Below the pieces are notes generated by a model. That model made no database searches. It was given only the letters and a program-made list of their open reading frames with translations, and was not told the DNA's origin. Both the position numbers and the translations under genes were made by a program. From contig CAZRQQ010000002.1 in the NCBI GenBank assembly GCA_964602465.1, positions 1 to 56,400 on the forward strand: a stretch of 56,400 nt of DNA, read 5' to 3'. Shown here in pieces: positions 17,355 to 55,000 of this stretch. Each line of letters opens with the position of its first letter. The first letter of the stretch is position 1. Source of the DNA: an uncultured Candidatus Saccharibacteria bacterium. Its GTDB lineage: Bacteria > Patescibacteriota > Minisyncoccia > Phycocordibacterales > UBA9973.

Positions 17355-17365
17355 TACTACAAAAT

Positions 17366-17397: not shown

Positions 17398-17514
17398 TCC
17401 ACATCACGAGTAGGTGATTGGTGATAGCATGCTATACTATTCAGTATATTTTTGTACTGAGATATCCACTACTTTCTCTACTACACTATTTGTGTTGCGT
17501 GATATACTTTCAAG

Positions 17515-24853: not shown

Positions 24854-25618
24854 ATGATAATCATCAAAACCGAAAGTGAAATAGAACGTTTGAAAAAGGG
24901 AGGTCCCATACTTGCCAATATTTTGCGTGAGGTTGCCAAAGCCGTAAAGCCAGGGGTTACGACCAAATCGCTTGATGAGCTCGCGTACAAGTTGATAACG
25001 GAAGCAGGGCACAAGCCGGCGTTTTTGCACTATAAACCCGAAGATGCACACAAGCCATATCCAGCGAGTTTGATTACTTCAGTGAACGAAGAAGTGGTGC
25101 ACGGCATCCCAGGAGACTATGTGCTCAAAGACGGTGATATTATTTCACTGGATCTCGGGCTCAACTACGAAGGAGTCTTTCTCGACCATGCGATCACTGT
25201 GCCAGTCGGCAAAATCAATGCCAAGGACAAAGAACTTCTTGCGGTGACACAGCAAGCGCTCGAAGTCGGTATCGAAGCAATTGGCTCTGGTGGTACGACA
25301 GGTGACATCGGCCACGCGATCGAAACATTTGTGAAGCCGTACAAGCTTGGTATCGTGCGTGATCTTTCGGGTCACGGTGTTGGTCGCGAGATCCACGAAG
25401 ATCCCTATGTGCCCAACTACGGCAAAAAGGGGAAGGGGGCAAAGCTCGTGCCGGGCATGGTGATCGCGATTGAGCCGATGCTTACTCGAGGTTCAGAAGA
25501 GATCATCCTCCTCAAAGACGGCTACACCCTCATCACTTCTGATAAATCCCGCAGCGCGCATTTTGAACATACGGTACTCATCAACGACAAAGGCGAGCCA
25601 GAAATTTTGACGAAGTAG
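24854..25618 (+). CDS. map: type I methionine aminopeptidase
   Basis: Pita-bread fold motifs (D..D....H, E..E). Confidence 0.93.
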   Translation: MIIIKTESEIERLKKGGPILANILREVAKAVKPGVTTKSLDELAYKLITEAGHKPAFLHYKPEDAHKPYPASLITSVNEEVVHGIPGDYVLKDGDIISLDLGLNYEGVFLDHAITVPVGKINAKDKELLAVTQQALEVGIEAIGSGGTTGDIGHAIETFVKPYKLGIVRDLSGHGVGREIHEDPYVPNYGKKGKGAKLVPGMVIAIEPMLTRGSEEIILLKDGYTLITSDKSRSAHFEHTVLINDKGEPEILTK

Positions 25619-25632: not shown

Positions 25633-26061
25633 ATGTTTAATCTTTTTAAGAAAAAAGAAAAACTAACGATTCAAGATGAGGTTTTTGGAAAAATCATTTT
25701 GAACGAGCTCAAAGATGAAAATAGAAATTTTTTCTATGGGCATGTTGATTTTTCATCAAATGATAAAAATATAGAAGTCTTTATAAAAACAAAAAATAAA
25801 GATTTACCAACAAATGAACAAAGAGATTTTTACAAAAAATTACAATCAGGATATCCAGAAATTTCTGAAAAAATTAAAAAGATATTTGAAAGCGAACTGA
25901 AGATAGCTGATTTTAAATTAGTAAGTATTGATGTTCCATATTTCGTGAACTCTCCATTGGTCTGGGAAATGAATTTCGAATCTTCCGCCGATGAAGATCA
26001 CATGTTTACTGTTGTTTTTGAGGATTTTGAGCCACAAAATGGAATAGTTGTAGATGGGTAA
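25633..26061 (+). CDS. hypothetical protein (AT-rich, in the position where infA is usually found)
   Basis: 142-aa ORF. No recognisable domain. Confidence 0.4.
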   Translation: MFNLFKKKEKLTIQDEVFGKIILNELKDENRNFFYGHVDFSSNDKNIEVFIKTKNKDLPTNEQRDFYKKLQSGYPEISEKIKKIFESELKIADFKLVSIDVPYFVNSPLVWEMNFESSADEDHMFTVVFEDFEPQNGIVVDG

Positions 26062-35899: not shown

Positions 35900-36034
35900 G
35901 CCGATGATGTATATAATCTTTTATATCATCCACCCTTAGCTCCCCGCCTGCATCAGCTACGCGAAGCATTGCGGGCAGGAGTTGGTAGAGCGCCGAGCTT
36001 ACCGGCGAAGCGAGTGGTATACAGACAAACGAGT

Positions 36035-36108
36035 GGGAGTATAGCTCAGTTGGTTAGAGCACGGAGCTTATACCTCCGCGGTCGATGGTTCGAGTCCATC
36101 TACTCCCA
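36035..36108 (+). tRNA. tRNA-Ile (anticodon UAU)
   Basis: Cloverleaf with acceptor GGGAGTA/TACTCCC, D-arm GCTC..GAGC, anticodon stem CGGAG/CTCCG, loop CTTATAC, T-arm GATGG-TTCGAGT-CCATC. Discriminator A. Confidence 0.7.
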
Positions 36109-36188
36109 CCCGTTTGAATGTGATATCCGAGCGATGCCGGCTCCAAAGGATGACCTCGGTGGTCCAGGCTTTTGTCCATGCACACCCA

Positions 36189-40281: not shown

Positions 40282-40369
40282 GGAGATGTGTCAGAGTGGT
40301 CGAATGTGCCCCCTTGCTAAGGGGGTAGGTGTCAAAGCCTCATGGGTTCGAATCCCATCGTCTCCGCCA
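40282..40369 (+). tRNA. tRNA-Ser (anticodon GCU), CCA encoded
   Basis: Acceptor GGAGATG/CGTCTCC, anticodon arm CCCCC-TTGCTAA-GGGGG, long variable arm, T-arm ATGGG-TTCGAAT-CCCAT. 3' GCCA. Confidence 0.85.
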
Positions 40370-40398
40370 ACAACAGTTAGCACGACTTGCGTCGTTAT

Positions 40399-40433: not shown

Positions 40434-41045
40434 TTGCGTAATAAAACCTCGTTCAAAAATGTTATTATTAAACCAATGAAAGAAGTACTCGCCATTATCG
40501 CTGCAATTCTGGCATTTGTCGGAAACATTTCGTACCTTAAGGATGTATTTAAGGGTCGAGTTCAACCACATCCGTACACATGGTTTATTTGGTCCATCGT
40601 TTCGATGACGACGTTTTTCGGTGGACTTGCAAAAGGTGCGGGTATTGGCGCACTTCCAACTGGTGTTGCCGAAGGCTTCACGATTATTATCTTTCTGTTT
40701 TCTCTGAAGTATCTCTTTGATGGAAAAGTGGGACACATCCGCAAAATCGACAATTACTTTTTGATTATTTGTCTGTTTGGATTGATTCCCTGGGCAATTA
40801 CCAAGGACCCAACCATATCGGTCGTGATTGTCGTTCTTATCGACATCGTCGCGTTCATTCCGACGCTTCGAAAAACATGGCAACATCCCGATACCGAAAA
40901 GCCGCTTCTCTATGAGATGAATGTCGCTCGGCACATTCTCACGCTGTTTTCATTGAATGCATACAATATCGCAACGATGTTCCACTCGATTGCAATGATT
41001 TGCACCAATACGCTTATGACAATGTTCATTAAACGAAAGAAATAG
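40434..41045 (+). CDS. hypothetical membrane protein (start probably MKEVLAII at 40476)
   Basis: About 6 hydrophobic helices. No recognisable domain. Confidence 0.4.
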   Translation: MRNKTSFKNVIIKPMKEVLAIIAAILAFVGNISYLKDVFKGRVQPHPYTWFIWSIVSMTTFFGGLAKGAGIGALPTGVAEGFTIIIFLFSLKYLFDGKVGHIRKIDNYFLIICLFGLIPWAITKDPTISVVIVVLIDIVAFIPTLRKTWQHPDTEKPLLYEMNVARHILTLFSLNAYNIATMFHSIAMICTNTLMTMFIKRKK

Positions 41046-41057
41046 TATAATTTCACT

Positions 41058-41570
41058 ATGACGTACAACATTCATCCACTGTTCGTGCATTTCCCCATAG
41101 CGTTTCTTCTCTTGTATTCTCTCTTGAGAATTCTTCCATTTGAGCGTTGGATTCCAACAATCGCATGGCGACAGGTCCGTTTCATCGTCTTGCTTGCGGG
41201 AGTGCTTGGTGCGATGGCTGCAAGCGCGACAGGAGAGATTGCTGAACACTTGGTACGTCCTGATCGACGTATTGTTGAGATGCATTCGCTATTTGCAACT
41301 GCTTCTACGTGGGTCTACGGCCTTCTTCTTATTGGAGAGTTTCTTGTGCTTTTGAATCCATATCTTGCACAAAAGTTTCCTAATGCAAGTTTGTTAAAGC
41401 TATTCCGTTTTGTTGAAAGTGTGCTTGCAAATCAAGCGCTTTCCATACTTCTCGCCATCGTAGGCGTTATTGCTATTTCAATTACAGGTCTTTTGGGGGG
41501 TGTAATGGTGTACGGAACATCTGCGGATCCGCTTGCTCCTGTAGTTCTTACACTGTTGGGAATTCAGTAG
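41058..41570 (+). CDS. DUF2231-like membrane protein
   Basis: N-terminal HPLFVHFPIAFLL motif typical of DUF2231. 4 TM helices. Confidence 0.5.
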   Translation: MTYNIHPLFVHFPIAFLLLYSLLRILPFERWIPTIAWRQVRFIVLLAGVLGAMAASATGEIAEHLVRPDRRIVEMHSLFATASTWVYGLLLIGEFLVLLNPYLAQKFPNASLLKLFRFVESVLANQALSILLAIVGVIAISITGLLGGVMVYGTSADPLAPVVLTLLGIQ

Positions 41571-41716
41571 ATATAACCCATCTCGTGCTAGCACGAGATG
41601 GGTTCGAATCCCCAATACACCGCCATTGACAGCTAGCACGAGATGCTTAGTTTGTAAGTGTTTTTATTGAGTCAAAAATTGACCCACTTGAGACATCTGA
41701 ACTTTGTATAAATACT

Positions 41717-41746
41717 AAAAAGAGTGACAATTGTCACTCTTTTTAG
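41717..41746. terminator. bidirectional terminator (aaaagagtgacaa-tt-gtcactctttt)
   Basis: Perfect palindrome with T-runs. Downstream of nirK on the minus strand. Confidence 0.6.
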
Positions 41747-41753
41747 TATTTAA

Positions 41754-43007
41754 TTAATGCATATCCATATCTTCAGTCATATTCATATCAATCTCAATCT
41801 TTTTAAATATCTCTGGGTTTTCATCTCCTGTCACCTCAAGCACAGCCCATGAGCCTTTATTCATTCTTGCTAACGCATGATCTACAAGTAAGTATTTACC
41901 AGGAACATCAACAGTAAACTCTACAATACTTGCACCCCCTGGAAGCACTGCTGTTGTCTGTACATTGCGTTCAATTGAGCCACCAATGTTTGCTTCTGGA
42001 TATACTGTATCGAATATTTCTCCAATCACGTGAAATGATGAGATGAGGTTAACACCGCCATTTCCTATATAGATACGAATCTTGTCTCCAACTTTTGCAG
42101 TTATTCTTGGAGTACTTTCGATTTTACCATTAAAGACGACATAGTTTGGTGTTCCAGCTAAAAGTGCATCTCCATCAAATGGAACAAGTCCTCGTTTTCC
42201 TGTTTTGCCTTCTGTATAAAATTCACCCTGAATCATGTAGAATTCTTTATCTACTTTTGGTAAGGCAATCTTTTGATCTTTTGGATCAACCATAATGAGT
42301 CCGTACTGGCCATGAGAATTGTGTGTACTGACGTTTGGCATAGCACAATGATAAATATACAATCCTGGGTTCAAAGCTTTCCATTGAAATGTCTTAGTCT
42401 CTCCTGGAGCAACATGAGTGATTGATGCTCCACCACCAGGACCGGTCACAGCATGCAGATCAATATTGTGATCATGTAAACTTGTCGGATCGTTAGTTAA
42501 CGATAGCTCAATAGTATCTCCTTCTTTTACTCGTAGCATGGGTCCAGGAACTTGTTTATTGTATGTCCAGTAGTTCATGTATATCCCCGGAGCCATTTCT
42601 GATATAACTTCTTGTGCTCGTAAATGTATGCGAACTATACCATCAGCATCGGGTATTTGCGGTTCACTTGGAACAGAATTCGGGTTGGCGGATATGTCAA
42701 CTATCTTCTCAAAGTTTTTTTCATACATAAAAAACTCTAAAATTTTACTAAAAGGAATAGCAGGTGCAATTCCGCCTGGAGCATGAGAGTGCATAAACAT
42801 TGGCATTGCGAAGTCAGGAGCATATGTACGATTTGATATGAGTCCAGCAAACAGAGCAATCACAAAAAGAGCAACTGGTATGTAAAGCAATTTTTGCTTA
42901 AAAATTGAATGAAAGTGAACCTTTTTCCATATATATCGCACAAGTATGACAAAGGCTATTAACCCAACTATTCCAGATATTATTTCAAAAATGAGATATG
43001 TAAACAT
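41754..43007 (-). CDS. nirK: copper-containing nitrite reductase NirK with N-terminal membrane anchor
   Basis: Type-1/type-2 Cu ligand blocks HDHNIDLHAVTG and YIYHCAMPNVSTHNSHGQYGLIMV match NirK. Two N-terminal TM helices. Confidence 0.8.
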   Translation of the reverse strand: MFTYLIFEIISGIVGLIAFVILVRYIWKKVHFHSIFKQKLLYIPVALFVIALFAGLISNRTYAPDFAMPMFMHSHAPGGIAPAIPFSKILEFFMYEKNFEKIVDISANPNSVPSEPQIPDADGIVRIHLRAQEVISEMAPGIYMNYWTYNKQVPGPMLRVKEGDTIELSLTNDPTSLHDHNIDLHAVTGPGGGASITHVAPGETKTFQWKALNPGLYIYHCAMPNVSTHNSHGQYGLIMVDPKDQKIALPKVDKEFYMIQGEFYTEGKTGKRGLVPFDGDALLAGTPNYVVFNGKIESTPRITAKVGDKIRIYIGNGGVNLISSFHVIGEIFDTVYPEANIGGSIERNVQTTAVLPGGASIVEFTVDVPGKYLLVDHALARMNKGSWAVLEVTGDENPEIFKKIEIDMNMTEDMDMH

Positions 43008-43024
43008 AAAAATTAGTATTTATA

Positions 43025-43396
43025 TTATTTATAAGGTATTTTACAATCCTCAAAACAGTGAGCATCACGGTTCAAGGTGAAATATTTTTCCCGACCAGAC
43101 ACTTTTGCATGTACAGCATTTACTGATTGGAGAACTTTAAGATGATGAGTAATAGTGGGTTGTCTTAGAGACATCTTATTCGTCAATTCTGTAACTGTTT
43201 GACCATTTTTTGATTTACCAAGTATACAAACCAAGTTGTAACGGCTTCTTTCGCCAACAACCTTGAAACAATCTGGACATAATTCCTTTTCGGACATAGA
43301 AGAAATTGGTACCCAGCTTGGGATTGGGTATGTTTTTTCTTGACTTTTATTTTTTATTACAGTCTGATGTATTTTTATATCTTTTTTTGCTTTCAT
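43025..43396 (-). CDS. ArsR/SmtB-family transcriptional regulator
   Basis: Winged-HTH pattern. RYNLVCIL...QTVTELTNKMSLRQPTITHHLKVL. Upstream of nirK in the same orientation. Confidence 0.6.
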   Translation of the reverse strand: MKAKKDIKIHQTVIKNKSQEKTYPIPSWVPISSMSEKELCPDCFKVVGERSRYNLVCILGKSKNGQTVTELTNKMSLRQPTITHHLKVLQSVNAVHAKVSGREKYFTLNRDAHCFEDCKIPYK

Positions 43397-43463
43397 ATAG
43401 ATAAGTATCTATGTTAATATGTATAGACCATTATCAATATAACATAATTAAGAAATAAAAACT

Positions 43464-44759
43464 ATGCCAAACACAGAAAATATTGCATCTTATACTCAAA
43501 ATGTCATCAAACGGGATGGTTCCATCCAGTCTTTTGATACAAAAAAGATAATCCAAGCAATCTACAAGGCGATGCTCTCTGTCGATAAGGGAAGCTTGGA
43601 TGACGCGAGATTTGTTGTCAAAAGTGTACTTCTTGATCTTGAAAAAAATCATGACCCTGAAGAAAAATACCCGAGCGTTGAGAAGATTCAAGATATTGTT
43701 GAGCAAGAATTAATGAAAAAAGAATTCTTTGATGTTGCAAAGTCATATATTCTATATAGACAGCAAAGAGCAGAGATGCGTAAACGTGACATTTTTAAAA
43801 AAAGAACTAATCTAAAGCCTTACGAATATCCCGAACTATATGAATATGTAAGCGCAATACGACATTCATACTGGATTCATACAGAATTTAATTTCACTAG
43901 CGACATACAGGACTTCAAAGTAAATGTAAATGAAAAAGAGAGAAATGCAATAAAAAACGCAATGCTTGCTATCGCGCAGATCGAAGTTACTGTTAAAACA
44001 TTTTGGGGTGATATATATAAAAAAATGCCGAAGCCTGAAATTGGTGCTGTCGGATTTACTTTTGCTGAAAGCGAAGTTAGGCACATGGATGCGTACGCTC
44101 ATTTGCTTGAGATACTTGGATTAAATGAAGAATTTAAAAAAATAAAAGAAATTCCTCCACTTATTGATCGTGTCAGATATCTTGAAAAAGCAATAAAAAA
44201 TTCTCGAAGTGAGGATCCTAGAGAATATGCTCAGGCCATTTTGCTTTTTTCTCTTTTTATTGAACATGTTTCATTATTTTCTCAATTTCTTATTATTATG
44301 TCATTTAATAAACATAGGAATATTTTCAAGGGAATATCAAATGCTGTCGAAGCAACTTCTAAAGAAGAACAAATACACGGGCTCTTTGGTATCGATGTTA
44401 TCAACGTTATAAAGAGTGAGCATCCAGAATGGTTTGATAAAGATTATGAGAATACTATTGTCGAGTCCTGCAAGGAAGCATTCGAATCAGAAAAAAAGGT
44501 TGTTGATTGGATACTTGAAATGGGGGAAATCGATTTTATACCAAAAAATGTAGTGCTTGAATTCGTTAAGAATAGATTTAACAACTCTCTTGCAAGTATC
44601 GGTATCTCTAGAATATTTGAAGTTGATAAAAATCTTTTGGAAAAAACTGATTGGTTTGATGACGAAGTTATTGCAACGAAGCACGGAGATTTCTTCGTGA
44701 AAAGGTCGATTAATTACAATAAGAGAAATCAAAGCGTCACAGGTGACGATTTGTTCTAA
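43464..44759 (+). CDS. nrdB: class I ribonucleotide reductase beta (radical-generating) subunit with N-terminal ATP-cone
   Basis: N-terminal VIKRDGSIQSFDTKKIIQAIYKA (ATP-cone). Ferritin-like di-iron ligand motifs E..H (ESEVRH, EEQIH). Confidence 0.75.
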   Translation: MPNTENIASYTQNVIKRDGSIQSFDTKKIIQAIYKAMLSVDKGSLDDARFVVKSVLLDLEKNHDPEEKYPSVEKIQDIVEQELMKKEFFDVAKSYILYRQQRAEMRKRDIFKKRTNLKPYEYPELYEYVSAIRHSYWIHTEFNFTSDIQDFKVNVNEKERNAIKNAMLAIAQIEVTVKTFWGDIYKKMPKPEIGAVGFTFAESEVRHMDAYAHLLEILGLNEEFKKIKEIPPLIDRVRYLEKAIKNSRSEDPREYAQAILLFSLFIEHVSLFSQFLIIMSFNKHRNIFKGISNAVEATSKEEQIHGLFGIDVINVIKSEHPEWFDKDYENTIVESCKEAFESEKKVVDWILEMGEIDFIPKNVVLEFVKNRFNNSLASIGISRIFEVDKNLLEKTDWFDDEVIATKHGDFFVKRSINYNKRNQSVTGDDLF

Positions 44760-44767
44760 TTAAATAT

Positions 44768-46492
44768 ATGAAATGGCTCAATGAACAGAGTAAATTATTT
44801 TTAGCAAAAGGATATCTCGCAAAAGGAGTAACCGCTGAGGAAAGAATACGTGAGATCGCAAACGTAGCAGAACGTATTCTTAACAAAGAGGGTTTTGCAG
44901 ATAAATTTTATGCATACATGTCAGAGGGATACTATTCTCTCGCATCTCCTGTCTGGTCAAATTTCGGACTAACTAAAGGTTTTCCTATCAGTTGTTTTTC
45001 TTCTTATGTTGGAGATGACATGGGGCAGATACTTTTTACCGAAGCAGAAGTTGGTATGATGAGTAAATATGGCGGAGGTACTGCTGGTTATTTTGGTGAT
45101 CTGCGTCCTCGTGGAGCGAGTATTAAAGATAATGGTATTTCTTCTGGAGCGGTTCATTTTATGAGACTTTTTGAAACAATGGTAAATGTTGTAAGTCAGG
45201 GTTCTGTCAGGCGTGGTCATTTTGCTCCATATCTGCCACTAGAACACAAAGACATTCACGAGTTTTTAGAAATCGGCACAGAAGGAAATCCTATCCAAGA
45301 ATTGACCTATGGTGTTACTGTTACGGATAAATGGCTAAATGATATGATCGATGGAGATCAAGAAAAAAGAGATATTTGGGCGAAAGTATTACAAAGAAGA
45401 AGCCAGATAGGATATCCATATATTTTATTTACTGATACTGTGAACAGAAACACGGTAGATGTTTACAAAGACAAAAATCTAAAGATACACGCAAGTAACT
45501 TATGCTCGGAAATATTACTTCCTTCTAATGAAAATTGGTCAGTTGTTTGTGATCTTTCCTCTATGAATCTTCTTTATTATAATGAATGGAAAGACACAGA
45601 TGCAGTAGAGACACTTGTTTATTTTTTAGATGCAGTAATGAGCGATTTTATTAGTAGATTGGAAGATTTTCGCGACAGTGGAGAAACGCATAAAAAACAA
45701 GCATTTCTTTTCATGGAACGTGCATACAATTTCGCAAAAGCAAACCGAGCACTGGGTCTTGGTGTCCTTGGATGGCACTCTCTTTTGCAAAGCAAAATGA
45801 TTCCTCTTGGAAGTACCGAGGCGAATGATCTTAATAAAGAAATATTTAAAGATCTTCATGATCAGTGCTATGCTGCTTCAGAAAAACTTGCAAAGGAATA
45901 CGGTGAACCAGAAATACTTGTAGGATACGGTAGAAGGAACACGACACTCCTTGCTGTTGCTCCTACAACTTCTTCTGCTTTTATCTTAGGACAAGTATCT
46001 CAGAGTATAGAACCTTTGTGGTCAAACTGTTATGTCAAAGATATTGATAAAATGAAAATCACTATTAAAAACCCTTTACTTGAAAAACTTTTAGAAGAAA
46101 AAGGTCTAAATACCAGAGAGATTTGGCAAGGCATAAGAGAAAATGACGGTTCAGTACAACATCTTTCAGAAATTACAGATAAAGAGAAAGAGATTTTTAA
46201 AACATTTGCTGAGATTGACCAAAAAGTAATTATTGAACAGGCTGCTGAAAGACAAAAATACATAGATCAAGGACAATCGCTTAATCTCATGATCGATCCT
46301 TCAATTCCAGCAAAAGAAGTAAATGCTTTATATCTTCATGCATGGAAGCGTGGTATCAAAACATTTTATTATCAACACAGCATGAATGCTGCTCAGCAGT
46401 TTGGGCGTAAAAAACTTAAAGAAGTTAATTTAAAACAAAAAGAGGTCGATCAAGATGAATCTAAAAATGTATGCATTTCGTGCGAAGCATAA
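44768..46492 (+). CDS. nrdA: class I ribonucleotide reductase alpha subunit (short, no ATP-cone)
   Basis: Active-site NLCSEILLP motif. C-terminal Cys pair (CISC). 574 aa. Confidence 0.8.
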   Translation: MKWLNEQSKLFLAKGYLAKGVTAEERIREIANVAERILNKEGFADKFYAYMSEGYYSLASPVWSNFGLTKGFPISCFSSYVGDDMGQILFTEAEVGMMSKYGGGTAGYFGDLRPRGASIKDNGISSGAVHFMRLFETMVNVVSQGSVRRGHFAPYLPLEHKDIHEFLEIGTEGNPIQELTYGVTVTDKWLNDMIDGDQEKRDIWAKVLQRRSQIGYPYILFTDTVNRNTVDVYKDKNLKIHASNLCSEILLPSNENWSVVCDLSSMNLLYYNEWKDTDAVETLVYFLDAVMSDFISRLEDFRDSGETHKKQAFLFMERAYNFAKANRALGLGVLGWHSLLQSKMIPLGSTEANDLNKEIFKDLHDQCYAASEKLAKEYGEPEILVGYGRRNTTLLAVAPTTSSAFILGQVSQSIEPLWSNCYVKDIDKMKITIKNPLLEKLLEEKGLNTREIWQGIRENDGSVQHLSEITDKEKEIFKTFAEIDQKVIIEQAAERQKYIDQGQSLNLMIDPSIPAKEVNALYLHAWKRGIKTFYYQHSMNAAQQFGRKKLKEVNLKQKEVDQDESKNVCISCEA

Positions 46493-46497
46493 AACTA

Positions 46498-46895
46498 TGG
46501 AAAAACACATTGAAGAATTCATACTATCCGCTGAAGCTAAAGCTTTGGCGACACATTCGAACGATAATATAAATGTCGTTCCTGTTTCCTCGATTAAAGT
46601 AATGGGAGGTAAAATTTGGCTTATCAATTATTTTATGGATAAGACACTCGCTAATATATTAGAAAATAAAAGCGTGGCACTTGTATGCTGGAGAAAGATG
46701 ATGGGGTATCAAATAAAAGGAATAGTATCTTATGTTACTTCCGGGCAAGACTTTGATGAAGCTGCAAAATGGATAAAATCAATATTACCGGATAGAGTTG
46801 TTAAGGGGTTGATAATTCTTACCCCTAATGAAATACACGACATATCTCCGACAAAAGACACCAAAGAAAAAATCTCAGCTGAACAAAATCTTTGA
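46498..46895 (+). CDS. pyridoxamine 5'-phosphate oxidase-like FMN-binding split-barrel protein (start at MEKHIEEF)
   Basis: Size, and a split-barrel-like pattern with an N-terminal V.VVPV and a GK.W motif. The ORF-track start at 46455 overlaps nrdA. Confidence 0.5.
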
Positions 46896-46948
46896 TGAAG
46901 CCCAACACTAATCTCTATTAATTTATTATCTCACTAAACAATAGATAA

Positions 46949-47407
46949 CTACTTATCCATAAGTATAATTTTTTTATTCGCCAAACAGATTTTACTCTTC
47001 AAGCACCCAAGCAATTCTCGTTTTTCAATATCGTCTCCTTCTTTCAGTATATACTTTGCGTATCCTCGTATATCAATATCAGGGATACTAATTTTTTCTT
47101 TAGTTCCTACTAGAAACTTTTGCATTTTAGAAAAGCGTTCAACATCTTCTTTTATCTTTTCTTTGATTTGGATCTCATTGAGATTTACATTTTCGATAAG
47201 TAATTGAAATTGCTTCAATAATTCTTTCTCTTCAATAGCACCACACTTACAATCTGGATCTCTGGCTCTTGTGCATCTATAGTAAACATAACGATGTACA
47301 TTTCCATTCTTCTGCTTCTTAAATTTCTCGTCAGCGGTGATGCCTGACTCGCACAGTCCGCAAGTCATCATTTTAGTGAAAGCAAATTCTTTGTTTTCAA
47401 CTCTCAA
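46949..47407 (-). pseudogene. truncated large serine recombinase (C-terminal zinc-ribbon + coiled-coil portion only)
   Basis: CGLCESGITADEKFKKQKNGNVHRYVYYRCTRARDPDCKCGAIEEKELL is the recombinase zinc beta-ribbon domain. The N-terminal resolvase and recombinase domains are absent. Confidence 0.6.
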
Positions 47408-47514
47408 GACATTACTTTTAATCTGCTCTTGAACCGATTATTCTTGGGAAGCACGAACAAGCCGCTCTAGAAGCGGTTACTGGCGGCGAGTGGAAAAAGT
47501 ATACTCGAGTCGCT

Positions 47515-48240
47515 ATGGCTGCACTTGGCGGTATCCCCTGGGTGGGAAGCGTTCTAAGTGCGGCTGCAACACTTTCTGCTGAAAACGAACAAGGCAAAAC
47601 GAATCAAATAATGTTTTTGTGGGTGCAGGAACACGAACAAAAATTCAAAGAGCTAGGAGTGACCTTGAATGGTATTTTTGAGAGATTTAGTTCGTTTGGA
47701 GATGAAGTAAATGCAAGATTGGAATCAACTGAGTACCTCACTCTTGTTAGAAAAACTTTCCGACTATGGGATCAGGCAGAAACACATGAAAAGAAGGAAA
47801 TGTTCAAAAAGTTGATTACTAATTCAGGGGTGATTACTTTGGCCCAAGATGATCTTGTCAGACTCTTTCTGGAATGGATTGAAAAATATCACGAGTTCCA
47901 TTTTGCTGTAATCAGAGAAATCTATACGACTCGCGGTATCACTCGTGGTGGCATTTGGGAAAGAATCAGAGGAGAAGAACCTCGGGAAGATTCAGCAGAA
48001 ACAGACTTGTTCAAATTACTTATACGCGACCTAAGTACGGGCGGCGTAATTCGTCAGGAGAAAGAAACCAATTCCCTAGGACAATTTGTAAGAAAGACTC
48101 GTTCAAAAGGAACTAGTCGTAGTTCTGTGTATGAGTCAGCATTTGAAGACACTAAACCATATGTTTTGACTGAATTAGGAGCGCAGTTTCTTCATTACGT
48201 TATGGAGGATATTGCACCTCAAATAGGAAGTGGAAGCTAA
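47515..48240 (+). CDS. hypothetical protein
   Basis: 241-aa ORF. No recognisable domain. Confidence 0.4.
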   Translation: MAALGGIPWVGSVLSAAATLSAENEQGKTNQIMFLWVQEHEQKFKELGVTLNGIFERFSSFGDEVNARLESTEYLTLVRKTFRLWDQAETHEKKEMFKKLITNSGVITLAQDDLVRLFLEWIEKYHEFHFAVIREIYTTRGITRGGIWERIRGEEPREDSAETDLFKLLIRDLSTGGVIRQEKETNSLGQFVRKTRSKGTSRSSVYESAFEDTKPYVLTELGAQFLHYVMEDIAPQIGSGS

Positions 48241-48249
48241 AAAGTAATT

Positions 48250-48579
48250 ATGAAAAATAACGCACATCTCGGAGAGACAAAAGAACAGAGATTAAAAAGG
48301 TTTAATGAAAATGGTCCGTATGAAGTGATAGCTACTATCACTAATTCAATGGCTAATCATTTAGTAAATGAATTGCGAACCGTTTTTTATAATCCACCAA
48401 ATTATCAAACATCGCTGATGTTTCTAGGTACTCATTCAATTGCTCTTACTATTGCTCATGGTTTCTGGAACAAGGGAGGAGAAAATGGATACAAGCTTTT
48501 CTTAGAACACTTTATAAGGGTATATAAGAACCGTTTACTTTTTTCTAACAGGCGTTACAATACGAGCATTATTATCTAA
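48250..48579 (+). CDS. hypothetical protein
   Basis: 109-aa ORF. No recognisable domain. Confidence 0.35.
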   Translation: MKNNAHLGETKEQRLKRFNENGPYEVIATITNSMANHLVNELRTVFYNPPNYQTSLMFLGTHSIALTIAHGFWNKGGENGYKLFLEHFIRVYKNRLLFSNRRYNTSIII

Positions 48580-51500
48580 ATGGGGCAAACCCGTATGTTT
48601 ATGAACAACCGAAAAGCGCGACAAACACTTCTTACAATCATCTCTACTTTTACGAAAAAGCTAGCGTTATCGACGCTAGCTTTTTCGCTTCTTTTTGGAT
48701 CAGTACCATTTGCATTTGCACAAGAGGTGTCTGAGTCTCAAAATACACCACTAACTGAATCTACAGAAACACCATCATCCACAATACCAACAGGAGATGG
48801 GAGTACTTCTTCAGGGCAATTGCTCCCATCTACAACAGATCAAACCGATACTGTAATTTCTCCTGAAAATATTCAACCCGCAATTGCCCTTGCGGGGCAA
48901 TCCGGGGTCGGTAATGCCGGCACTACTCCAGACAACGATGTGACTGGATTGACACACCAGCAACTCCCTAATGTAAACGATAGTGGTATCCTCTCGTATA
49001 ACTACCCCTTGACCATTGCGCCTGGACGACTAGGACTAACACCCAGTCTTTCGCTTTCTTATAACAACAGAAACCGTGACGACGGCGTCTTTGGTGTTGG
49101 TTGGTCACTTTCTATTCCATACATCGAACGAACCAACAAAAAAGGTATTGATACTACCTATACCGATAACTACTTTAGTTCAAGCCAAGCAGGAGAACTT
49201 GCCCTTGTTTCGGGTACGACGTATGCCCCACGTGTAGAAAATGGTGAATTTTCAAGTTACGATTTCGACGGAACGAAATGGACTGTTGTTGATAAAAAGG
49301 GTGTTACCTATAAATACGGTGTACAAGCTGCAACTCGCCAGGATGACCCGGGTAATGCAAGTAGAGTATATCGATGGTATCTCGAAGAAGTCCGAGATAC
49401 AAACAACAACTACATCACCTATGAATACTACAAAGATGCAGGACAGATTTATCCTTTAAAAATCACATATACAGGTAACGGGGTTACAGCGGGTGTCCTT
49501 ACAGTACATTTTGTCCGAACTGCACGAACAAATCCAATCATTTCATATGCTACTGGTTTTGGGGTAATAACAAACTATCAAATCACAGAAGTTCGTAATG
49601 AAATAAACAGTGTTTGGACGAGAAAGTATACACTCGCATATACGACTGCAGACAATACAAAAAATCTCCTGATCAATACAATCACTGAATCTGGACAGGA
49701 TGAGAGTGCGGTTGTCACAACACTTCCTGCAACTGACTTTGATTACAAAACATCAGATCCGAACTGGACGTATAACTCTACATACAATCTCCCAGAGACC
49801 TTCTATACAACGAGCGGTAAAGATAGAGGGCTTCGTATTGATGACATGACAGGAGACGGCATGGCTGACATTACCTGTCATAATGGCGCCTCAACAGGAA
49901 ACTGCGCCCAAACAGGAGCAATTTCTTGGAAAAACAATGGCGCTGGGTGGACTGCACTAGGACCATGGGATTACCCATCAATGGGAGGTGTACCGTTCAT
50001 GACCACTGAACGATTTACTGATAGCACATATGCAGATGCTGGGCTTCGAATCTTTGATGTAAACGGTGATGGAATGGCCGATTTGGTACGATCTGATGGT
50101 ACGAGTGGGACTGGTCCATATGTCTATCTCGCCAACGGCACAAATGGTTGGACATATTCGTCAACATGGAATTTCCCTCCGATTAACTTTGTAACAAATG
50201 GTGCCGACAATGGTATGCGTATCGCAGACATCAACGGCGACGGCTTGCCAGATGTGGTGTGTGCCGCTCGAGGAAATAGCTGTGCCGGAAATAGTGGAAT
50301 GATCTGGATAAATACAGGATCAGGGTTTGTAGATAAAACAACATCATGGTCAATGCCAAAGATTGGCGGAGATCCACTTGCTCAAAGTGAAGCATTTACC
50401 GACAGTAGTTTCCAAGACCTGTCACTCCGATTGCTCGATGTAAACGGTGACGGACTTGCTGATTTGGTACGAGCATCACAAAGTGCACTTTATACGTATC
50501 TCAATAATGGTGTAAACGGATGGATATATACTGCAAGTTGGAATATGCCGATCCCGTTCTACGACAGTGCAAACAATGATTATGGTGTTCGAATGGCTGA
50601 TATCAATGGTGATAATCTTCCAGATATTCTCTGCCATACTGCAAATGCAGGTGCAAGTAACTGTAGTCAACTAGGTCCTGTGTTTTATATCAACACTGGT
50701 TCAGGTTGGGTAGGAGCAAGTTGGAACTTCCCGAATATCGGTGGCATTGTTACCAATAATACGGAAGCATTTACTTCACCTTCATACCAGGATACCTCAC
50801 TCCGTATTGTTGATATAAACGGTGACGGACTCAGTGACCTGGTACGAGGAGCAGACGGTTTTCTATATACCTATATCAATAACAATAGTGTAAAGGCCGA
50901 TCAGCTTACTAAGATAACCTATCCATCTGGTGGCTCAAGTACTATCACGTACAAACCAGCGCAGTTTTATCGAGACGGATCAAACAATGCGCTCAACCCA
51001 AAACTTCCGATGGTACTTGATGTGGTTTCGCAGATAGTGACCGATGATGCATTTGGTGGTACCGCTCAGACGACAAGCTATACCTATGAAAAAGGGTTAT
51101 ACTACACCGCAGCAGTCAATGATCGAAAGTTTGCAGGATTTAATATTGTCACTAAAACTGACGGTGCAGGTAATATCACAAAAACATACTATCACCAAGC
51201 AGATACCACGGACACCTCACTCGGTGAATACAATGATGAGTTCTCTAAGATCGGAAAAGTGTATCGAGTTGAGCAGTATGATAATGCGGGCAATCTCTAT
51301 CTAGTCACTGTAAACAAATGGGATAAATACAATCAAGCAACCGATCGTGACTTTGTGAAGCTTGCTCGACAAACAACACTTGCCTATGACGGTAATGGAA
51401 CGCACAAGGATACCGCAACGGAGTACACCTATGACAACACGAACGGTTCAATATTAACTCAAACTGAATGGGGCGAAGTGGCTGGAGCGACCGATGGATC

Positions 51501-54500
51501 ATTTAGTGATACAGGAACTGACAAACGTGTGACCACAAATCTATATGCAACCAATGGTACCACCAAAGTTGTCGCTGTCTACAACAGTACTGTTACTGAT
51601 CAGTCGGCAGCAAAAGTACGAGAGGATAAGTACTACTACGATACACTCGCGTATGGCTCAGTATCTAAGGGTAATCAAACTAAGAATGAAAAATGGAAGA
51701 CAGCAAGCACCTATGTCAATACTCAGAAAACATATAATGCAACCTACGGAAATGTTGCAACAGAAACTGACGAACGTGGTAAGGTAACGACCTATACGAC
51801 GTATGATACGTATAATCTGTATCCAATTACTATCACCAATCCGCTCTCACAGACTACGCAATATCTCTATGACTACTCGCTTGGTAAACCAAAACAAGTC
51901 ACCGATCAAAATGGATTTGTCTACAAGACTACCTATGACGGACTCGATCGTGTAAAACTCATTCAAATTCCTGATTTCACTACACCCTACAGCGCTATAA
52001 CGAAAACTTCGTATACGTACACTGATACGTCGGGTGCGGTGCGTATCCAAAAAAGTGATTACCTCGATGGTACTGTGATTGCAGATACCTATCAGTACCT
52101 CGATGGTCTCAATCGCATCATTCAAGAACGCAAGAAGTCAGAAACATCGCCGACCTATAACATCACAAACACGATGTACAACAGTGTTGGATTGGTGCTC
52201 AAGCGTTCAATTCCACACACAGGTACCGGTGCATCACGAAGCACTCCTTCAGCGACAACATATCTCTACATCAACTACACGTATGATCCTCTCCAACGCG
52301 TGCTCACTCAGTCGGATGCGATTGGTACTACAACCTATGCATATGATGACTGGAAGACGACGGTTACCGATCGTAACGGCAAGGTCAAGAAGTACTATAC
52401 CGATGCCTACAATAATCTCATAAAAGTTGATGAGATCAATGGCGCTTCAACGTATACCACCAACTATGAGTGGAACCTCAACGCAAAGCTTACCAAAGTC
52501 ACCGATGCATCAAGCAACATCCGTAACTTCACCTATGACGGTCTCGGCCGACGCCTTACAGCACAAGATCTTCACGCTTCAGCAGATGCGACATTTGGTA
52601 CTTGGACGTATACCTACGATGATGCAGGAAACTTGACCCAGACTATTAGTCCTCGATCGCTCACGACCAATTACACCTACAACGATATCAATCAACAACT
52701 CACCGAAGATACGACTGGTGTGGCAGGAACGGAAATCACGTATACGTATGGCGGTTGCACAAACGGTACTGGAAAACTCTGTACAGTTACAATGACAAGC
52801 GGCGCAAACACGTCATACACATATGATTCAAATGGCAACCTTGCAAGCGAGATCAAGACGGTCAATAGCAATGCGTACACAACGTCATATACCTACGATC
52901 GACAAGGAAATATCGTTACAGTTACTTATCCTGATGGTGCACAAGTAAAATACACCTATAACGTTGAAAATCTCCCTGAAAAGATTGAACGAAAGGAAAG
53001 CGGTGGTGCATTCACAAATGTGATCTCAAACTTCGATTACAACGCAGCAAGCCTCATCACAACCCAAGCCTATCCAAATACTGTTACAACGACAAACACC
53101 TACGATCAGGCGAAGCTCTACAGAATGACTCGTCGTCTGACGCAAAATACAGTACCCACTAAAATGCTCGATCTTAACTACACCTACGATAATGAAGGAA
53201 ATATTACCCAGGTAATTGATTCGTCAAATACAACTACTTCGAAGACTGCTAACTATGCCTATGACGATGTATATCGTATGTTATCGGCAACGATAACGAC
53301 AGTGTCATCAGGAACGACTGCATATACGCACACTTACACGTATGATGCACTCGGCAATATTCTCACAGGTCCAATTGGTACTTACCTCTACCAAGGAAAC
53401 ACAGGAGTGCTCACTGCAAACCCTCATGCGGCAACCTCGATCAATGGGGTCACCTACACGTACGATGCAGATGGTAATCTCACCAGCAACGGTACGCTTG
53501 CAAATACATGGAACTATAAAGACCAGCTCACACAGACTGTAGTCGGAGGTGTAACGATCAACGATTACTATGACCACAACAGTGATCGTGTCTGGCACAA
53601 GGTCGGTACGGCAAACAACTACTATCCAAACAAGTACTACAATGTTGATTCAACAGGAAAGAAGACCAAGCAGATCTACGCAGGCGATCAACTTGTTGCA
53701 ACAGTTGAAACGGTTGGTACTACCGTCACTCCGTACTACAACCATGTTGATCAGGTCAACTCTGTGACTGCGGTGACAAACGGCACAGGCGCATCGGTTG
53801 CAACGCTCGACTACTTCCCGTACGGTAACCAGCGTATCTCAAGTGGTACGTATACTTCACAACGACAGTACATTGGACAGGTTTATGACACCAATGCACA
53901 GCTCAACTATCTCAATGCGCGATATCTCAAATCTAATATTGGAAAGTTCATTAGTGAAGATCCAATGTTCTGGAGTATGACTGATACTGCACTCAGAAAT
54001 CCTCAATATACAAACTCATATTCATATGGAAATAATAATCCGATCACTCTAAGTGATCCAACAGGTAAATGCATCTGGGACGGTTGTATCGCAGAAGGAA
54101 TGCTCCTAGCAGCGGCTACTCAAGCTATTGCACCACTTCTGACGACTGCTTATGTTACTGATTATGTTGGGACACAGTTAAATCCCACTGTTTCTACATC
54201 AGTGAAGTCACAGGCAAATAAGCAAGCTCTAGATGCTCTTGCCTTAGGAGTCGGGATTTCTATAAGTATGCCAAATGCAAACTTCTCTAGGGTAGCTCCA
54301 TCAGTAGCTCCTTCTACGTCTCGAGCATCAGTTCTACAAGCAAACAAAGCAGCTGGTGCTGCATTTGAAACTAGCGAACTAAAAGCTATTACTAAATCAT
54401 TTCCAGTAACTCAAACTCAGTTGACCATCAAAACACCGAGCGGTATTACTACTAGAATGGATATTATAGCTAGAGATTCTTTGGGAAATATTTGTCTATT

Positions 54501-54666
54501 CGAGTGTAAGTCATCTATTACAGCTCCTCTAACAAAAAACCAGTCTCTCGCATTTCCGGAAATACAAAAATCTGGAGGAATGATTATGGGAAATGGTAAG
54601 CCTGGATTTCCTGGCAATACGTTAATCCCTCCTACAAGAGTTAATATATTAAGACCTGTAAAATAA
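48580..54666 (+). CDS. secreted RHS-repeat polymorphic toxin of Tc-toxin BC-like architecture (SpvB-like region, FG-GAP repeats, YD/RHS shell, RHS core with DPxG, variable C-terminal toxin domain)
   Basis: Signal peptide. SpvB-like segment GVFGVGWSLSIPYIERT. Five FG-GAP-like repeats (D(V/I)NGDG.(A/P)D(L/V)V). Many YD repeats (YTYD..GN). RHS core ...ARYLKSNIGKFISEDP. DPTG at 54054-54065 followed by a ~200-aa AT-rich tail. Confidence 0.85.
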   Translation: MGQTRMFMNNRKARQTLLTIISTFTKKLALSTLAFSLLFGSVPFAFAQEVSESQNTPLTESTETPSSTIPTGDGSTSSGQLLPSTTDQTDTVISPENIQPAIALAGQSGVGNAGTTPDNDVTGLTHQQLPNVNDSGILSYNYPLTIAPGRLGLTPSLSLSYNNRNRDDGVFGVGWSLSIPYIERTNKKGIDTTYTDNYFSSSQAGELALVSGTTYAPRVENGEFSSYDFDGTKWTVVDKKGVTYKYGVQAATRQDDPGNASRVYRWYLEEVRDTNNNYITYEYYKDAGQIYPLKITYTGNGVTAGVLTVHFVRTARTNPIISYATGFGVITNYQITEVRNEINSVWTRKYTLAYTTADNTKNLLINTITESGQDESAVVTTLPATDFDYKTSDPNWTYNSTYNLPETFYTTSGKDRGLRIDDMTGDGMADITCHNGASTGNCAQTGAISWKNNGAGWTALGPWDYPSMGGVPFMTTERFTDSTYADAGLRIFDVNGDGMADLVRSDGTSGTGPYVYLANGTNGWTYSSTWNFPPINFVTNGADNGMRIADINGDGLPDVVCAARGNSCAGNSGMIWINTGSGFVDKTTSWSMPKIGGDPLAQSEAFTDSSFQDLSLRLLDVNGDGLADLVRASQSALYTYLNNGVNGWIYTASWNMPIPFYDSANNDYGVRMADINGDNLPDILCHTANAGASNCSQLGPVFYINTGSGWVGASWNFPNIGGIVTNNTEAFTSPSYQDTSLRIVDINGDGLSDLVRGADGFLYTYINNNSVKADQLTKITYPSGGSSTITYKPAQFYRDGSNNALNPKLPMVLDVVSQIVTDDAFGGTAQTTSYTYEKGLYYTAAVNDRKFAGFNIVTKTDGAGNITKTYYHQADTTDTSLGEYNDEFSKIGKVYRVEQYDNAGNLYLVTVNKWDKYNQATDRDFVKLARQTTLAYDGNGTHKDTATEYTYDNTNGSILTQTEWGEVAGATDGSFSDTGTDKRVTTNLYATNGTTKVVAVYNSTVTDQSAAKVREDKYYYDTLAYGSVSKGNQTKNEKWKTASTYVNTQKTYNATYGNVATETDERGKVTTYTTYDTYNLYPITITNPLSQTTQYLYDYSLGKPKQVTDQNGFVYKTTYDGLDRVKLIQIPDFTTPYSAITKTSYTYTDTSGAVRIQKSDYLDGTVIADTYQYLDGLNRIIQERKKSETSPTYNITNTMYNSVGLVLKRSIPHTGTGASRSTPSATTYLYINYTYDPLQRVLTQSDAIGTTTYAYDDWKTTVTDRNGKVKKYYTDAYNNLIKVDEINGASTYTTNYEWNLNAKLTKVTDASSNIRNFTYDGLGRRLTAQDLHASADATFGTWTYTYDDAGNLTQTISPRSLTTNYTYNDINQQLTEDTTGVAGTEITYTYGGCTNGTGKLCTVTMTSGANTSYTYDSNGNLASEIKTVNSNAYTTSYTYDRQGNIVTVTYPDGAQVKYTYNVENLPEKIERKESGGAFTNVISNFDYNAASLITTQAYPNTVTTTNTYDQAKLYRMTRRLTQNTVPTKMLDLNYTYDNEGNITQVIDSSNTTTSKTANYAYDDVYRMLSATITTVSSGTTAYTHTYTYDALGNILTGPIGTYLYQGNTGVLTANPHAATSINGVTYTYDADGNLTSNGTLANTWNYKDQLTQTVVGGVTINDYYDHNSDRVWHKVGTANNYYPNKYYNVDSTGKKTKQIYAGDQLVATVETVGTTVTPYYNHVDQVNSVTAVTNGTGASVATLDYFPYGNQRISSGTYTSQRQYIGQVYDTNAQLNYLNARYLKSNIGKFISEDPMFWSMTDTALRNPQYTNSYSYGNNNPITLSDPTGKCIWDGCIAEGMLLAAATQAIAPLLTTAYVTDYVGTQLNPTVSTSVKSQANKQALDALALGVGISISMPNANFSRVAPSVAPSTSRASVLQANKAAGAAFETSELKAITKSFPVTQTQLTIKTPSGITTRMDIIARDSLGNICLFECKSSITAPLTKNQSLAFPEIQKSGGMIMGNGKPGFPGNTLIPPTRVNILRPVK

Positions 54667-54667
54667 T

Positions 54668-55000
54668 ATGTCAGTTGATCAGAAAAAAGTAATAGACGCA
54701 ATAAGTATTGATGAGAAATCAAATGAAGTTTTACTGTTTATTTTTGACCACCACACATGGGATGACCCAAAGAGTGATCATGCACTTATCTTGCAAGATA
54801 AAATAAATGATTATCTGTCTTATGTTGAAAGTGGAGAAATATATGAAAACAATCCACAATACAAAAACAAGCCCTTAGTTATAATTGTTAAAGGAAAATA
54901 TCCATTAAGTGAATTTGGTAAAAGCTTTTATGAAAAAGCAACCTCAATAGTGCAATGGGCTGGCTTTGATCTGAGATTTGAACATAGCTCTACAAAATAA
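54668..55000 (+). CDS. putative cognate immunity protein
   Basis: 110-aa ORF starting 2 nt after the toxin's stop codon. AT-rich like the toxin's C-terminal module. Confidence 0.45.
   Translation: MSVDQKKVIDAISIDEKSNEVLLFIFDHHTWDDPKSDHALILQDKINDYLSYVESGEIYENNPQYKNKPLVIIVKGKYPLSEFGKSFYEKATSIVQWAGFDLRFEHSSTK

Follow-up and report, generated by a model that had tools for sequence, protein, structure and literature searches.

The window analysed here, a stretch of 56,400 nucleotides from a metagenome contig of an uncultured bacterium filed under Candidatus Saccharibacteria (CAZRQQ010000002.1, assembly GCA_964602465.1), contains an AT-rich block with genes for a copper nitrite reductase (nirK), an ArsR-type regulator (arsR), a class I ribonucleotide reductase (RNR; nrdB and nrdA) and a PNPOx-like protein, followed by the 3' remnant of a large serine recombinase gene. 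This block is probably the tRNA-proximal cargo arm of a decayed, fixed, phage-like integrative element of a kind that carries small and large terminase subunit genes (terS, terL) and a serine recombinase of ~440 aa. Elements of this family would integrate just 3' of tRNA genes, in this case tRNA-Ser, with variable cargo in the stretch that extends from the attachment (att) site to where the recombinase gene ends. The present copy would have imported a ready-made divergent module, arsR-nirK / nrdB(ATP-cone)-nrdA-PNPOx-like, from a low-GC gene pool of Patescibacteria; both the direction and the source of this transfer are what we infer. A later deletion or rearrangement at 47434/47435 would then have removed everything else in the element, including the terminase genes and the catalytic domains of the recombinase, and left the cargo immobile, and the neighbouring tRNA-Ser would have decayed to a 28-nt 3' stub. 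A reading made earlier from the sequence alone (the sequence-only reading) had proposed a horizontally acquired, now-fixed island. The tRNA, the composition shift and the decayed serine recombinase on which it relied all hold, and the comparison with other loci, in which the same module is found beside an intact recombinase, contributes direct evidence that it is mobile.

The recombinase remnant lies on the minus strand at 46949-47434 (ORF, i.e. open reading frame, 46949-47407), with a Pfam match to Zn_ribbon_recom, and had been correctly recognized as a truncated large serine recombinase. It corresponds to about the last 160 of 440 residues, i.e. the C-terminal third with the zinc ribbon and a C-terminal coiled coil, and lacks the Resolvase and Recombinase domains. 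Homology to intact recombinase genes ends at 47434 in the loci L081, L200, L201, L203 and L004 and at 47435 in L199, and the reading frame meets stops immediately upstream of 47434. Because both catalytic domains have been lost, the island can no longer move. The same module is found next to an intact gene in L081, a 7.8-kb metagenome contig that matches the window from 41718 to 47434 at 93.5% DNA identity and continues into an intact 440-aa recombinase (Resolvase, Recombinase and Zn-ribbon) and then into a gene for the terminase large subunit (PHROG 38, E 3e-21). L200 and L201 match positions 41602-47434 at 91% DNA identity, preceded by a tRNA-Ser 3' end and followed by the recombinase gene, which is cut by the contig end, and L199 comprises nrdB-nrdA-PNPOx together with a full 440-aa recombinase. 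In yet another locus (L198, ~33% GC) the right end of the module is found at 90% DNA identity, from the 3' part of nrdA through the PNPOx-like gene to a stub of the recombinase gene, of which just 140 nt are left; this is an independent case of decay.

Relatives of the L081 recombinase are numerous (more than 500 in metagenome contigs and 11 in IMG/VR viral contigs), and 91 of their loci were analysed. Downstream of the recombinase, 34 tRNAs are oriented opposite to it and 2 in its own direction, and upstream of it 480 kb contain a single one; the first downstream tRNA is tRNA-Gln in 14 loci, tRNA-Ser in 10, tRNA-Trp in 4 and tRNA-Asn in 3. The distance from the recombinase stop codon to the tRNA, which gives the cargo length, ranges from 0.1 to 9.3 kb, and terL is located within 2.5 kb upstream of the recombinase, on the same strand, in 39 of the 69 loci with enough flank. 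The layout of the family is terS-terL-recombinase-cargo-tRNA, with a conserved inverted repeat behind the CCA end of the tRNA. It is exemplified by L185, where the order is ParB-methyltransferase, terS, terL, recombinase, cargo and tRNA-Gln, and where the cargo (11325-19099) comprises the Shedu protein SduA, a type IIG Eco57I-like restriction-modification enzyme and an SNF2/PLD protein. In L116, terL is accompanied by a methyltransferase gene and the cargo includes a gene of the metallo-beta-lactamase fold, the cargo of L107 (8124-12825) encodes DNA methyltransferases, and that of L167 includes a PNPOx-like and a nirK-like gene. The window conforms exactly to this layout, with the tRNA remnant followed by 5.3 kb of cargo and then by the 3' end of the recombinase gene.

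The best of the rival explanations, although an improbable one, is that of a non-viral integrative island, similar to integrative and conjugative (ICE) or mobilizable (IME) elements or to the staphylococcal cassette chromosome (SCC) and mobilized by a serine recombinase, in which the terminases would belong to a satellite or be there by coincidence, and whose decayed form would be a genomic island rather than a prophage remnant. It is favoured by the lack of any recognized capsid or portal gene in the intact relatives, by L004, whose recombinase adjoins no terminase and is preceded instead by genes for a pyridoxal phosphate (PLP) enzyme and a regulator, by the ICE- or island-like appearance of the vehicle in L092-97 (described below), and by the NCBIfam models, according to which the recombinase is nearest to the Ccr recombinases of SCC, albeit well below their cutoffs. 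However, it is opposed by the 39 of 69 loci in which terL immediately precedes the recombinase, by terS in L185, by the 11 family members in viral contigs of IMG/VR, and by terL beside the recombinase in L081, which carries the closest relative of the island. As the virion genes beyond terS/terL are barely detectable, we call the element phage-like and not a proven phage.

The base composition of the block is foreign to its surroundings. The GC content in 1-kb windows is 0.33-0.39 from ~42.0 to 48.5 kb, down from 0.44-0.52 (overall 0.357 in the island and 0.460 in the core), and the GC content at third codon positions (GC3) is 0.24-0.33 in all eight ORFs between 41754 and 48579, compared with 0.45-0.60 in most core genes. 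The windows in the island are also the clearest outliers in tetranucleotide composition, with L1 distances of 0.30-0.43 versus 0.14-0.23 elsewhere, and with correlations of the base-composition-normalized tetranucleotide profile (TUD) to the rest of the window of 0.53-0.64 versus 0.70-0.90. The composition shift that had been noted from about 41.7 kb is thus borne out by GC and tetranucleotide calculations. Further short low-GC genes are dispersed across the window, so that the genome is compositionally mosaic and low GC alone is not unique to the island, but the island is the longest and most extreme low-GC stretch. As for its extent, placed earlier at 41700-48580, the low GC indeed reaches 48579; by homology, however, the right end is at 47434, inside the recombinase gene, and the demonstrable island spans about 41626-47434 (5.8 kb). 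The part between these two right ends contains two plus-strand ORFs of 241 and 109 aa (47515-48240 and 48250-48579), which adjoin a gene for an RHS toxin and had been noted as two unknown ORFs near the end of the island. They are indeed of low GC and without a family (no matches in Pfam, NCBIfam, PHROGs or PADLOC, nor, for the 241-aa ORF, in a scan of IMG/VR), but no counterpart was found in any island-bearing relative, i.e. neither in L081 and L199-L201 nor in any other fetched locus.

The host can be recognized from the core genes of the window, which include a cluster for ribosomal proteins and the genes for EF-G, EF-Tu, FtsH and RecG. At 65-75% identity, RecG matches proteins from metagenome-assembled genomes (MAGs) labelled Candidatus Paceibacterota, Nomurabacteria or Patescibacteria (some are mislabelled Saccharibacteria), which places the host among the Paceibacteria-type bacteria of the Candidate Phyla Radiation. 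About 19 of these relatives have kept the gene order FtsH-(PGA_cap)-o173-tRNA-Ile-RecG-o95-TMEM175-tRNA-Ser(GCU). The tRNA-Ile in this array (36034-36111) has the anticodon UAU and is conserved beside RecG across the clade, which implies that AUA is decoded without a lysidine-modified CAU tRNA. In 11 of the syntenic relatives the flank covers 3.7 kb or more, and in none of them was any of the five cargo genes found, nirK and the nrd genes included, so the comparison with related genomes that the sequence-only reading had put forward as a check shows the module to be absent at the syntenic locus. At this tRNA-Ser(GCU), one relative (L004) has other low-GC cargo together with an intact recombinase that belongs to the family (85% identical to that of L081 over its full length, and 77% to the remnant in the window), for which reason the locus is regarded as an integration hotspot.

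Outside syntenic relatives the module and its parts are found in several settings. L088, a contig 92% identical in DNA to the island over 4 kb, comes from the same assembly (CAYHJY01) as L013, whose RecG is only 66% identical to that of the window in protein and 68% in DNA. Such a difference within one MAG (92% in the island versus 68% in RecG) would be a large incongruence, with the qualification that a contig of 4 kb can be mis-binned. The module (NrdA 83% identical) is also present in an 18-kb element (L092-97) with three different left host flanks, which encodes HigB, ImmA, a P4 cII-like protein, copper-handling proteins (Cu-ATPase) and a 538-aa serine recombinase. nrdB-nrdA-PNPOx occur alone in a core-like context in L082, with a GC3 of 0.23 compared with ~0.4 in the neighbours. 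nirK stands alone beside rpmG in L100 (88.5% DNA identity to nirK of the window), where the whole locus has ~34% GC and a GC3 of ~0.28, so that the gene is compositionally native there. The same class Id RNR has been found in core-like contexts in other Patescibacteria as well, and the gene content, described earlier as accessory, is accessory in a relative sense only: it is island cargo in the window, but the RNR belongs to core-like regions elsewhere in the group.

These data bear on a second explanation, which we consider very improbable, namely that the block is native, vertically inherited DNA with a low GC caused by gene-specific constraint or local AT bias, and that the recombinase fragment is an unrelated scar. 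The dispersed short low-GC genes, the core-like class Id nrdBA of other Patescibacteria and the wide distribution of nirK in the group are compatible with it. It is contradicted by the DNA identity of 91-93% to copies linked to an intact recombinase and of 92% to a contig from a MAG with core genes only ~68% identical, by the absence from 11 syntenic relatives, by the outlying composition of the same genes in L082, and by the shift at third codon positions shared by all eight ORFs.

At the left end, the intact tRNA-Ser(GCU) detected by ARAGORN (40282-40369, plus strand) marks the edge of the syntenic core FtsH...RecG-o95-TMEM175-tRNA, and its position is conserved in L002-L008, L016, L018, L019 and L025. 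It is followed by two membrane-protein genes on the plus strand (40434-41570), of which the first encodes a 203-aa protein without a family and the second a DUF2231 protein (41058-41570, Pfam); with GC3 values of 0.47 and 0.39, respectively, they are near native in composition and belong to the context outside the AT-rich island. Next comes a 28-nt degenerate 3' remnant of a tRNA-Ser (41598-41625, plus strand), comprising the T-arm, the 3' acceptor strand and CCA, with no 5' part, and not called as a tRNA by ARAGORN. In L007 and L025 the DUF2231 gene precedes a second tRNA-Ser, and the stub occupies the position held by this tRNA-Ser('ACT') after DUF2231 in relatives; in L200 the same island adjoins a well-formed tRNA-Ser 3' end. 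The earlier placement of the island downstream of tRNA-Ser is consequently right with respect to tRNA adjacency, but the immediate neighbour is the 28-nt stub, and two membrane-protein genes stand between it and the intact tRNA, 1.3 kb upstream of the stub. The second tRNA-Ser of the relatives, which they carry besides the normal tRNA-Ser(GCU), has a 7-nt anticodon loop TTACTAA, i.e. the anticodon ACU with A34, and is located at L002:472-557, L007:2747-2834, L008:4419-4504, L009:4108-4194, L016:6276-6363, L018:7730-7816, L019:449-536 and L025:1-86, and also in L120, L153 and L162. A serine tRNA with an unmodified A34 is unusual.

Directly after the CCA end of the stub there is an att-like motif, TTGACAGC-TA-GCACGAGATGC (41626-41646, plus strand). 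A motif of this type, either in a short form, TCGTG(C/A)TAGCACGAG, or in a form with a longer loop, stands behind the element-adjacent tRNA in most loci of the recombinase family and is absent from the other tRNAs in these loci. The exact 8-mer TAGCACGA occurs within 40 nt after 12 of 42 tRNAs in the recombinase loci, where it is present only 41 times in a total of 2.09 Mb. Both the motif and the spacer have been conserved along with the island in L200 and L201, where homology begins at position 41602 of the window and the 80-nt spacer is shared as far back as a tRNA 3' end. The inverted repeat behind the CCA end would accordingly be the attachment site of the family; the motif at 41626-41646 is taken as a candidate attL, and hence the left end is placed, as the probable one, near 41626-41635. 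A similar motif, ACAACAGT-TA-GCACGACTTGC, stands directly after the CCA end of the intact tRNA-Ser (40370-40390, plus strand) and, given its likeness to the motif behind tRNAs that adjoin elements of the recombinase family, may have been left by an earlier integration of the same element family. The two tRNA-Ser 3' ends with their flanks form a direct repeat of 55 nt with 75% identity (40342-40396 / 41598-41652). We considered whether this repeat is a duplicated tRNA 3' end bracketing a 1.26-kb islet, and rejected this possibility on the grounds of the synteny in L007 and L025, of L200 and of the family-wide occurrence of the motif, which indicate instead that the two tRNA-Ser 3' ends are separate and that an att-like motif stands behind each of them.

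The abrupt change of composition in a metagenome assembly, the hairpins and palindromes at the left junction and the end of the L081 contig at that point could also suggest an artefact of assembly or binning, with DNA of a low-GC organism or a phage joined to the genome in a chimeric contig, but this is hardly credible, since two chimeric joins would be needed, of which the left one falls at a sensible place (the tRNA remnant and the family att-like motif, as in L200, after a DUF2231-tRNA order that matches the relatives) and the right one cuts the recombinase at a single defined position, beyond which DNA of higher GC leads to a gene of native composition.

Several observations weigh against the interpretation of the block as the cargo arm of a phage-like element. 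First, no attR or second boundary has been found: a search of the window for a second att site or for direct repeats bounding the island returned short repeats at chance level only, the tRNA-flank motif GCTAGCACGAGA has no other occurrence in the window nor at other element ends in the loci checked, and the right end is a breakpoint and not a site. Second, a perfect 30-nt palindrome (41575-41604), which includes CTCGTGCTAGCACGAG and extends into the first part of the tRNA remnant, brackets the stub together with a 14-nt direct repeat, GCTAGCACGAGATG (both within 41575-41645), and neither is explained by the model; they could possibly be a trace of aberrant or tandem site-specific recombination, and L158 (9430-9500) is the only other locus where a comparable motif was found, there with the 3' end of a pseudo-tRNA behind it. 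Third, the incongruence between L088 and L013 depends on one 4-kb contig binned into a MAG, and the incongruence between island and core consists of pairwise identities and not of gene trees. Fourth, the contigs L081 and L199-L203 are short and carry no host genes, and some of them could represent conspecific strains with the same vertically inherited island. Finally, the virion genes found in the intact relatives are limited to terS/terL, one tail-like match and an ImmA-like protease, with no recognized capsid or portal, so that a phage, a satellite and another terminase-bearing element cannot be told apart; in the window itself, no terminase or virion genes linked to an integrase are present. 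A literature search on serine-recombinase prophages in Patescibacteria gave no matches.

The phage-like element proposed here can be compared with large-serine-recombinase phages and islands, such as those using the phiC31 and Bxb1 integrases or the Ccr recombinases of SCC, with which it shares the domain order Resolvase-Recombinase-Zn ribbon, the location of the recombinase by one end of the element with cargo alongside, the lack of long direct repeats at the junctions, and the fixation of the insert by loss of the catalytic domain. It differs from them in the insertion immediately 3' of tRNA genes (Ser, Gln, Trp, Asn), in the short recombinase (~440 aa) encoded directly after terL, and in a slot of 0.1-9 kb for variable cargo that separates the recombinase from the tRNA; the NCBIfam models for SCC Ccr and XisF are matched far below their cutoffs. 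Insertion at tRNA genes is usually tied to tyrosine integrases. The likeness to tRNA-linked genomic and pathogenicity islands comprises the tRNA adjacency, the composition shift, the decayed integrase, the accessory metabolic cargo and the variable region at the same tRNA in relatives. However, the integrase is of the serine type here and of the tyrosine type there, the flanking tRNA is degenerate, and the att-like element is a short inverted repeat behind the CCA end, where those islands have a duplication of the 3' half of the tRNA. Prophages or islands that are linked to a tRNA, carry metabolic cargo and have decayed are in themselves ordinary objects, and the comparative value of this one is moderate and consists in the identification of a vehicle. 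Patescibacteria (Candidate Phyla Radiation) have tiny genomes and patchy metabolism. The locus and its relatives provide a concrete vehicle for the exchange of metabolic genes among these bacteria, namely a large family of terminase-encoding serine-recombinase elements that insert beside tRNAs with interchangeable cargo, from nitrite reductase and O2-dependent class Id RNR to copper-handling genes and defence systems. The locus further illustrates the fixation of cargo by integrase decay, independently in at least two genomes, and makes several points testable: a candidate attachment motif, a conserved candidate ArsR-type operator of nirK and nrd, and a candidate flavoprotein partner of class Id RNR.

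As to the cargo itself, nirK is located on the minus strand (41754-43007, GC3 0.273) and matches TIGR02376 with 304 bits (cutoff 296), and its product has an N-terminal extension with two hydrophobic stretches, in agreement with its initial description as a membrane-anchored copper nitrite reductase. The best solved structure is that of Neisseria AniA, a class II enzyme (1KBV, 328 bits). The motifs HNIDLH, HC, FHVIG and VDH align with those of AniA, so that the type-2 copper histidines of the two-cupredoxin type and the catalytic Asp and His are present, and the product is predicted to be an AniA-type copper nitrite reductase with an N-terminal membrane anchor. Both proteins are tethered to the membrane, but by an N-terminal two-helix anchor here and by a lipid anchor in AniA. 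They differ also in the type-1 copper site, where the canonical set His-Cys-His-Met is not found: in the place of the axial Met of AniA there is a Gln (HGQYG aligned to NGMYG of 1KBV, residues HCAMPNVSTHNSHGQYG), and the same Gln is present in all 120 closest NirK homologues (≥72% identity). This substitution would represent a variant of the type-1 copper site and not its loss, and would be expected to alter the redox potential of the site through which electrons enter the enzyme. The region 41647-41752 between the att-like motif and nirK consists of a spacer and a perfect 22/22-nt hairpin (41709-41752), detected by a repeat search, which acts as the terminator of nirK. This region moves together with the island, being ~91% identical in L200 and L201, and is present in L081 from 41718. 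The occurrence of nirK in Parcubacteria is well documented in the literature, and lateral transfer has been hypothesized for patchily distributed genes such as nirK, without the vehicle being named (PMC7304191).

Upstream of nirK, on the same strand and divergent from nrdB, is the arsR gene (43025-43396), whose product matches HTH_5 and NF033788 and is thus confirmed as a regulator of the ArsR/SmtB family. It accompanies the module in L081, L088, L092-97 and L200-201. The divergent arsR/nrdB promoter region contains an inverted repeat, ATAGAT-N4-ATCTAT (43397-43412), a candidate ArsR operator, which is kept even in the L092/L095 type of element, where the nrd region is only ~75% identical in DNA to that of the window. 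Its conservation in these diverged copies suggests that the arsR-nirK and nrd operons are under shared ArsR-type control. We infer that the cargo is expressed and useful, and that it would provide its host with O2-dependent synthesis of deoxyribonucleotides (dNTPs) and with nitrite reduction under such control.

nrdB (43464-44759) and nrdA (44768-46492), both on the plus strand, constitute a complete class I RNR, as had been noted, which can now be refined to class Id. NrdB has an N-terminal ATP-cone (Pfam, E 1e-23) followed by Ribonuc_red_sm and matches NrdBi of Leeuwenhoekiella blandensis (5OLK) with 614 bits over residues 12-431, ATP-cone included. The class Id residues conserved in this alignment are the first-ligand Glu, the Tyr, its Thr partner, and the Lys and Trp of helix 1, which are identical to those of 5OLK (in QIEVxVKTFW, ESEVRH..DAY, FIEH and NAVEATSKEEQIH); the roles of these signature residues in class Id NrdB have been described (PMC5794259, PMC8463856). 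NrdA, of 574 aa, is composed of the lgN and lgC domains alone, with no ATP-cone, and gives 745 bits with TIGR02510 (cutoff 602), 727 bits with 6DQX and 608 bits with 6DQW. As NrdB matches 5OLK including the ATP-cone and NrdA matches 6DQX and 6DQW, the enzyme is assigned to class Id, a known type, with the activity switch predicted to be on the small subunit. Of the biochemical traits of NrdAi/NrdBi, i.e. a Mn2(III/IV) cofactor assembled with superoxide and ATP/dATP control through the cone of NrdB, the sequence displays the ATP-cone domain. Exact-sequence look-ups returned no recorded protein identical to NrdA or NirK of the window. ATP-cone-bearing NrdBi proteins have been reported from viruses and several phyla (PMC5794259). 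The likeness to NrdAi/NrdBi of L. blandensis extends to the short NrdA without ATP-cone and the hallmark residues (5OLK; PMC5794259), but here the host is a patescibacterium, the operon lies on a mobile element, a small gene for an FMN (flavin mononucleotide) barrel follows downstream, and an arsR-nirK pair is divergently oriented. NrdA of the class Id type is common in cultured phages (61-65% identity, e.g. in large Staphylococcus phages), and a scan of IMG/VR with NrdA returned relatives at 36% identity only. Compared with the RNR genes that phages carry as auxiliary metabolic genes, the present ones likewise encode a class Id-type NrdA and belong to a terminase-bearing element, but they are situated, together with nirK, in the lysogeny-side cargo slot of a temperate element and persist in the host after its decay.

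The PNPOx-like protein gene (46455-46895, plus strand) matches PNPOx_N with an E-value of 5e-12. The true start is probably Met21, at position 46515, as the homologues begin at MEKHIE. The AlphaFold2 model (pLDDT 86) has HupZ and the FMN-binding protein of Desulfovibrio vulgaris as its nearest structures, and the protein is modelled as a minimal FMN-binding split barrel, so that both the profile match and the model are in agreement with the flavin-binding protein suggested at the outset. The gene directly follows nrdA in 6 of 7 distinct genomic contexts and, as judged by composition and evolution, has been transferred together with nrdBA; nevertheless, L196 presents nrdBA without the PNPOx-like gene, and L167 presents the PNPOx-like gene with a nirK-like gene and without nrdBA. 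No homologue of it was found in cultured phages. On the basis of this gene linkage, the PNPOx-like protein could tentatively be proposed as a dedicated redox partner of class Id RNR, a non-homologous counterpart of NrdI that would supply superoxide or electrons for assembling or re-activating the Mn2(III/IV) cofactor, although we consider this proposal doubtful. The protein is not of the NrdI type, having a split barrel and not a flavodoxin fold, and it is analogous in operon position alone. According to a review, no class Id β subunit is encoded near an NrdI, and the enzyme scavenges environmental superoxide (PMC8463856); the papers on class Id RNR consulted here mention no FMN-barrel partner (PMC5794259, PMC8463856). 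If the proposal were true, nrdB-nrdA-PNPOx would provide for aerobic dNTP synthesis as a mobile cassette sufficient in itself, spread by phage-like serine-recombinase elements, together with nirK, among otherwise fermentative Patescibacteria.

The remainder of the window contains some other notable features. A low-GC gene for a PemK/MazF-like toxin is present at 5345-5767, and its homologues in L003, L004 and L008 sit at another locus, between TMEM175 and tRNA-Ser(GCU), so that it looks like another mobile small gene. Behind rplB (9212-10048) there are five successive low-GC ORFs without a Pfam family (10185-13159), followed by a diacylglycerol kinase gene (13188-13580). The gene at 17515-20055, whose 846-aa product has a Peptidase_S74 domain (endosialidase chaperone, tail-fibre-like), is flanked by small ORFs that resemble further ribosomal-protein genes. 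The lowest GC content of the window (0.28; GC3 0.22) is exhibited by a 142-aa ORF without a Pfam family (25633-26061), which lies directly behind an ORF conserved in relatives (24854-25618). Finally, the region 48580-55000 encodes a 2028-aa polymorphic toxin of the SpvB/TcdB/FG-GAP/RHS type, with an RHS core and a C-terminal domain without a family match; its tetranucleotide profile is atypical too, and the low-GC DUF6572 gene (GC3 0.23) immediately behind it is probably the immunity gene of the toxin.

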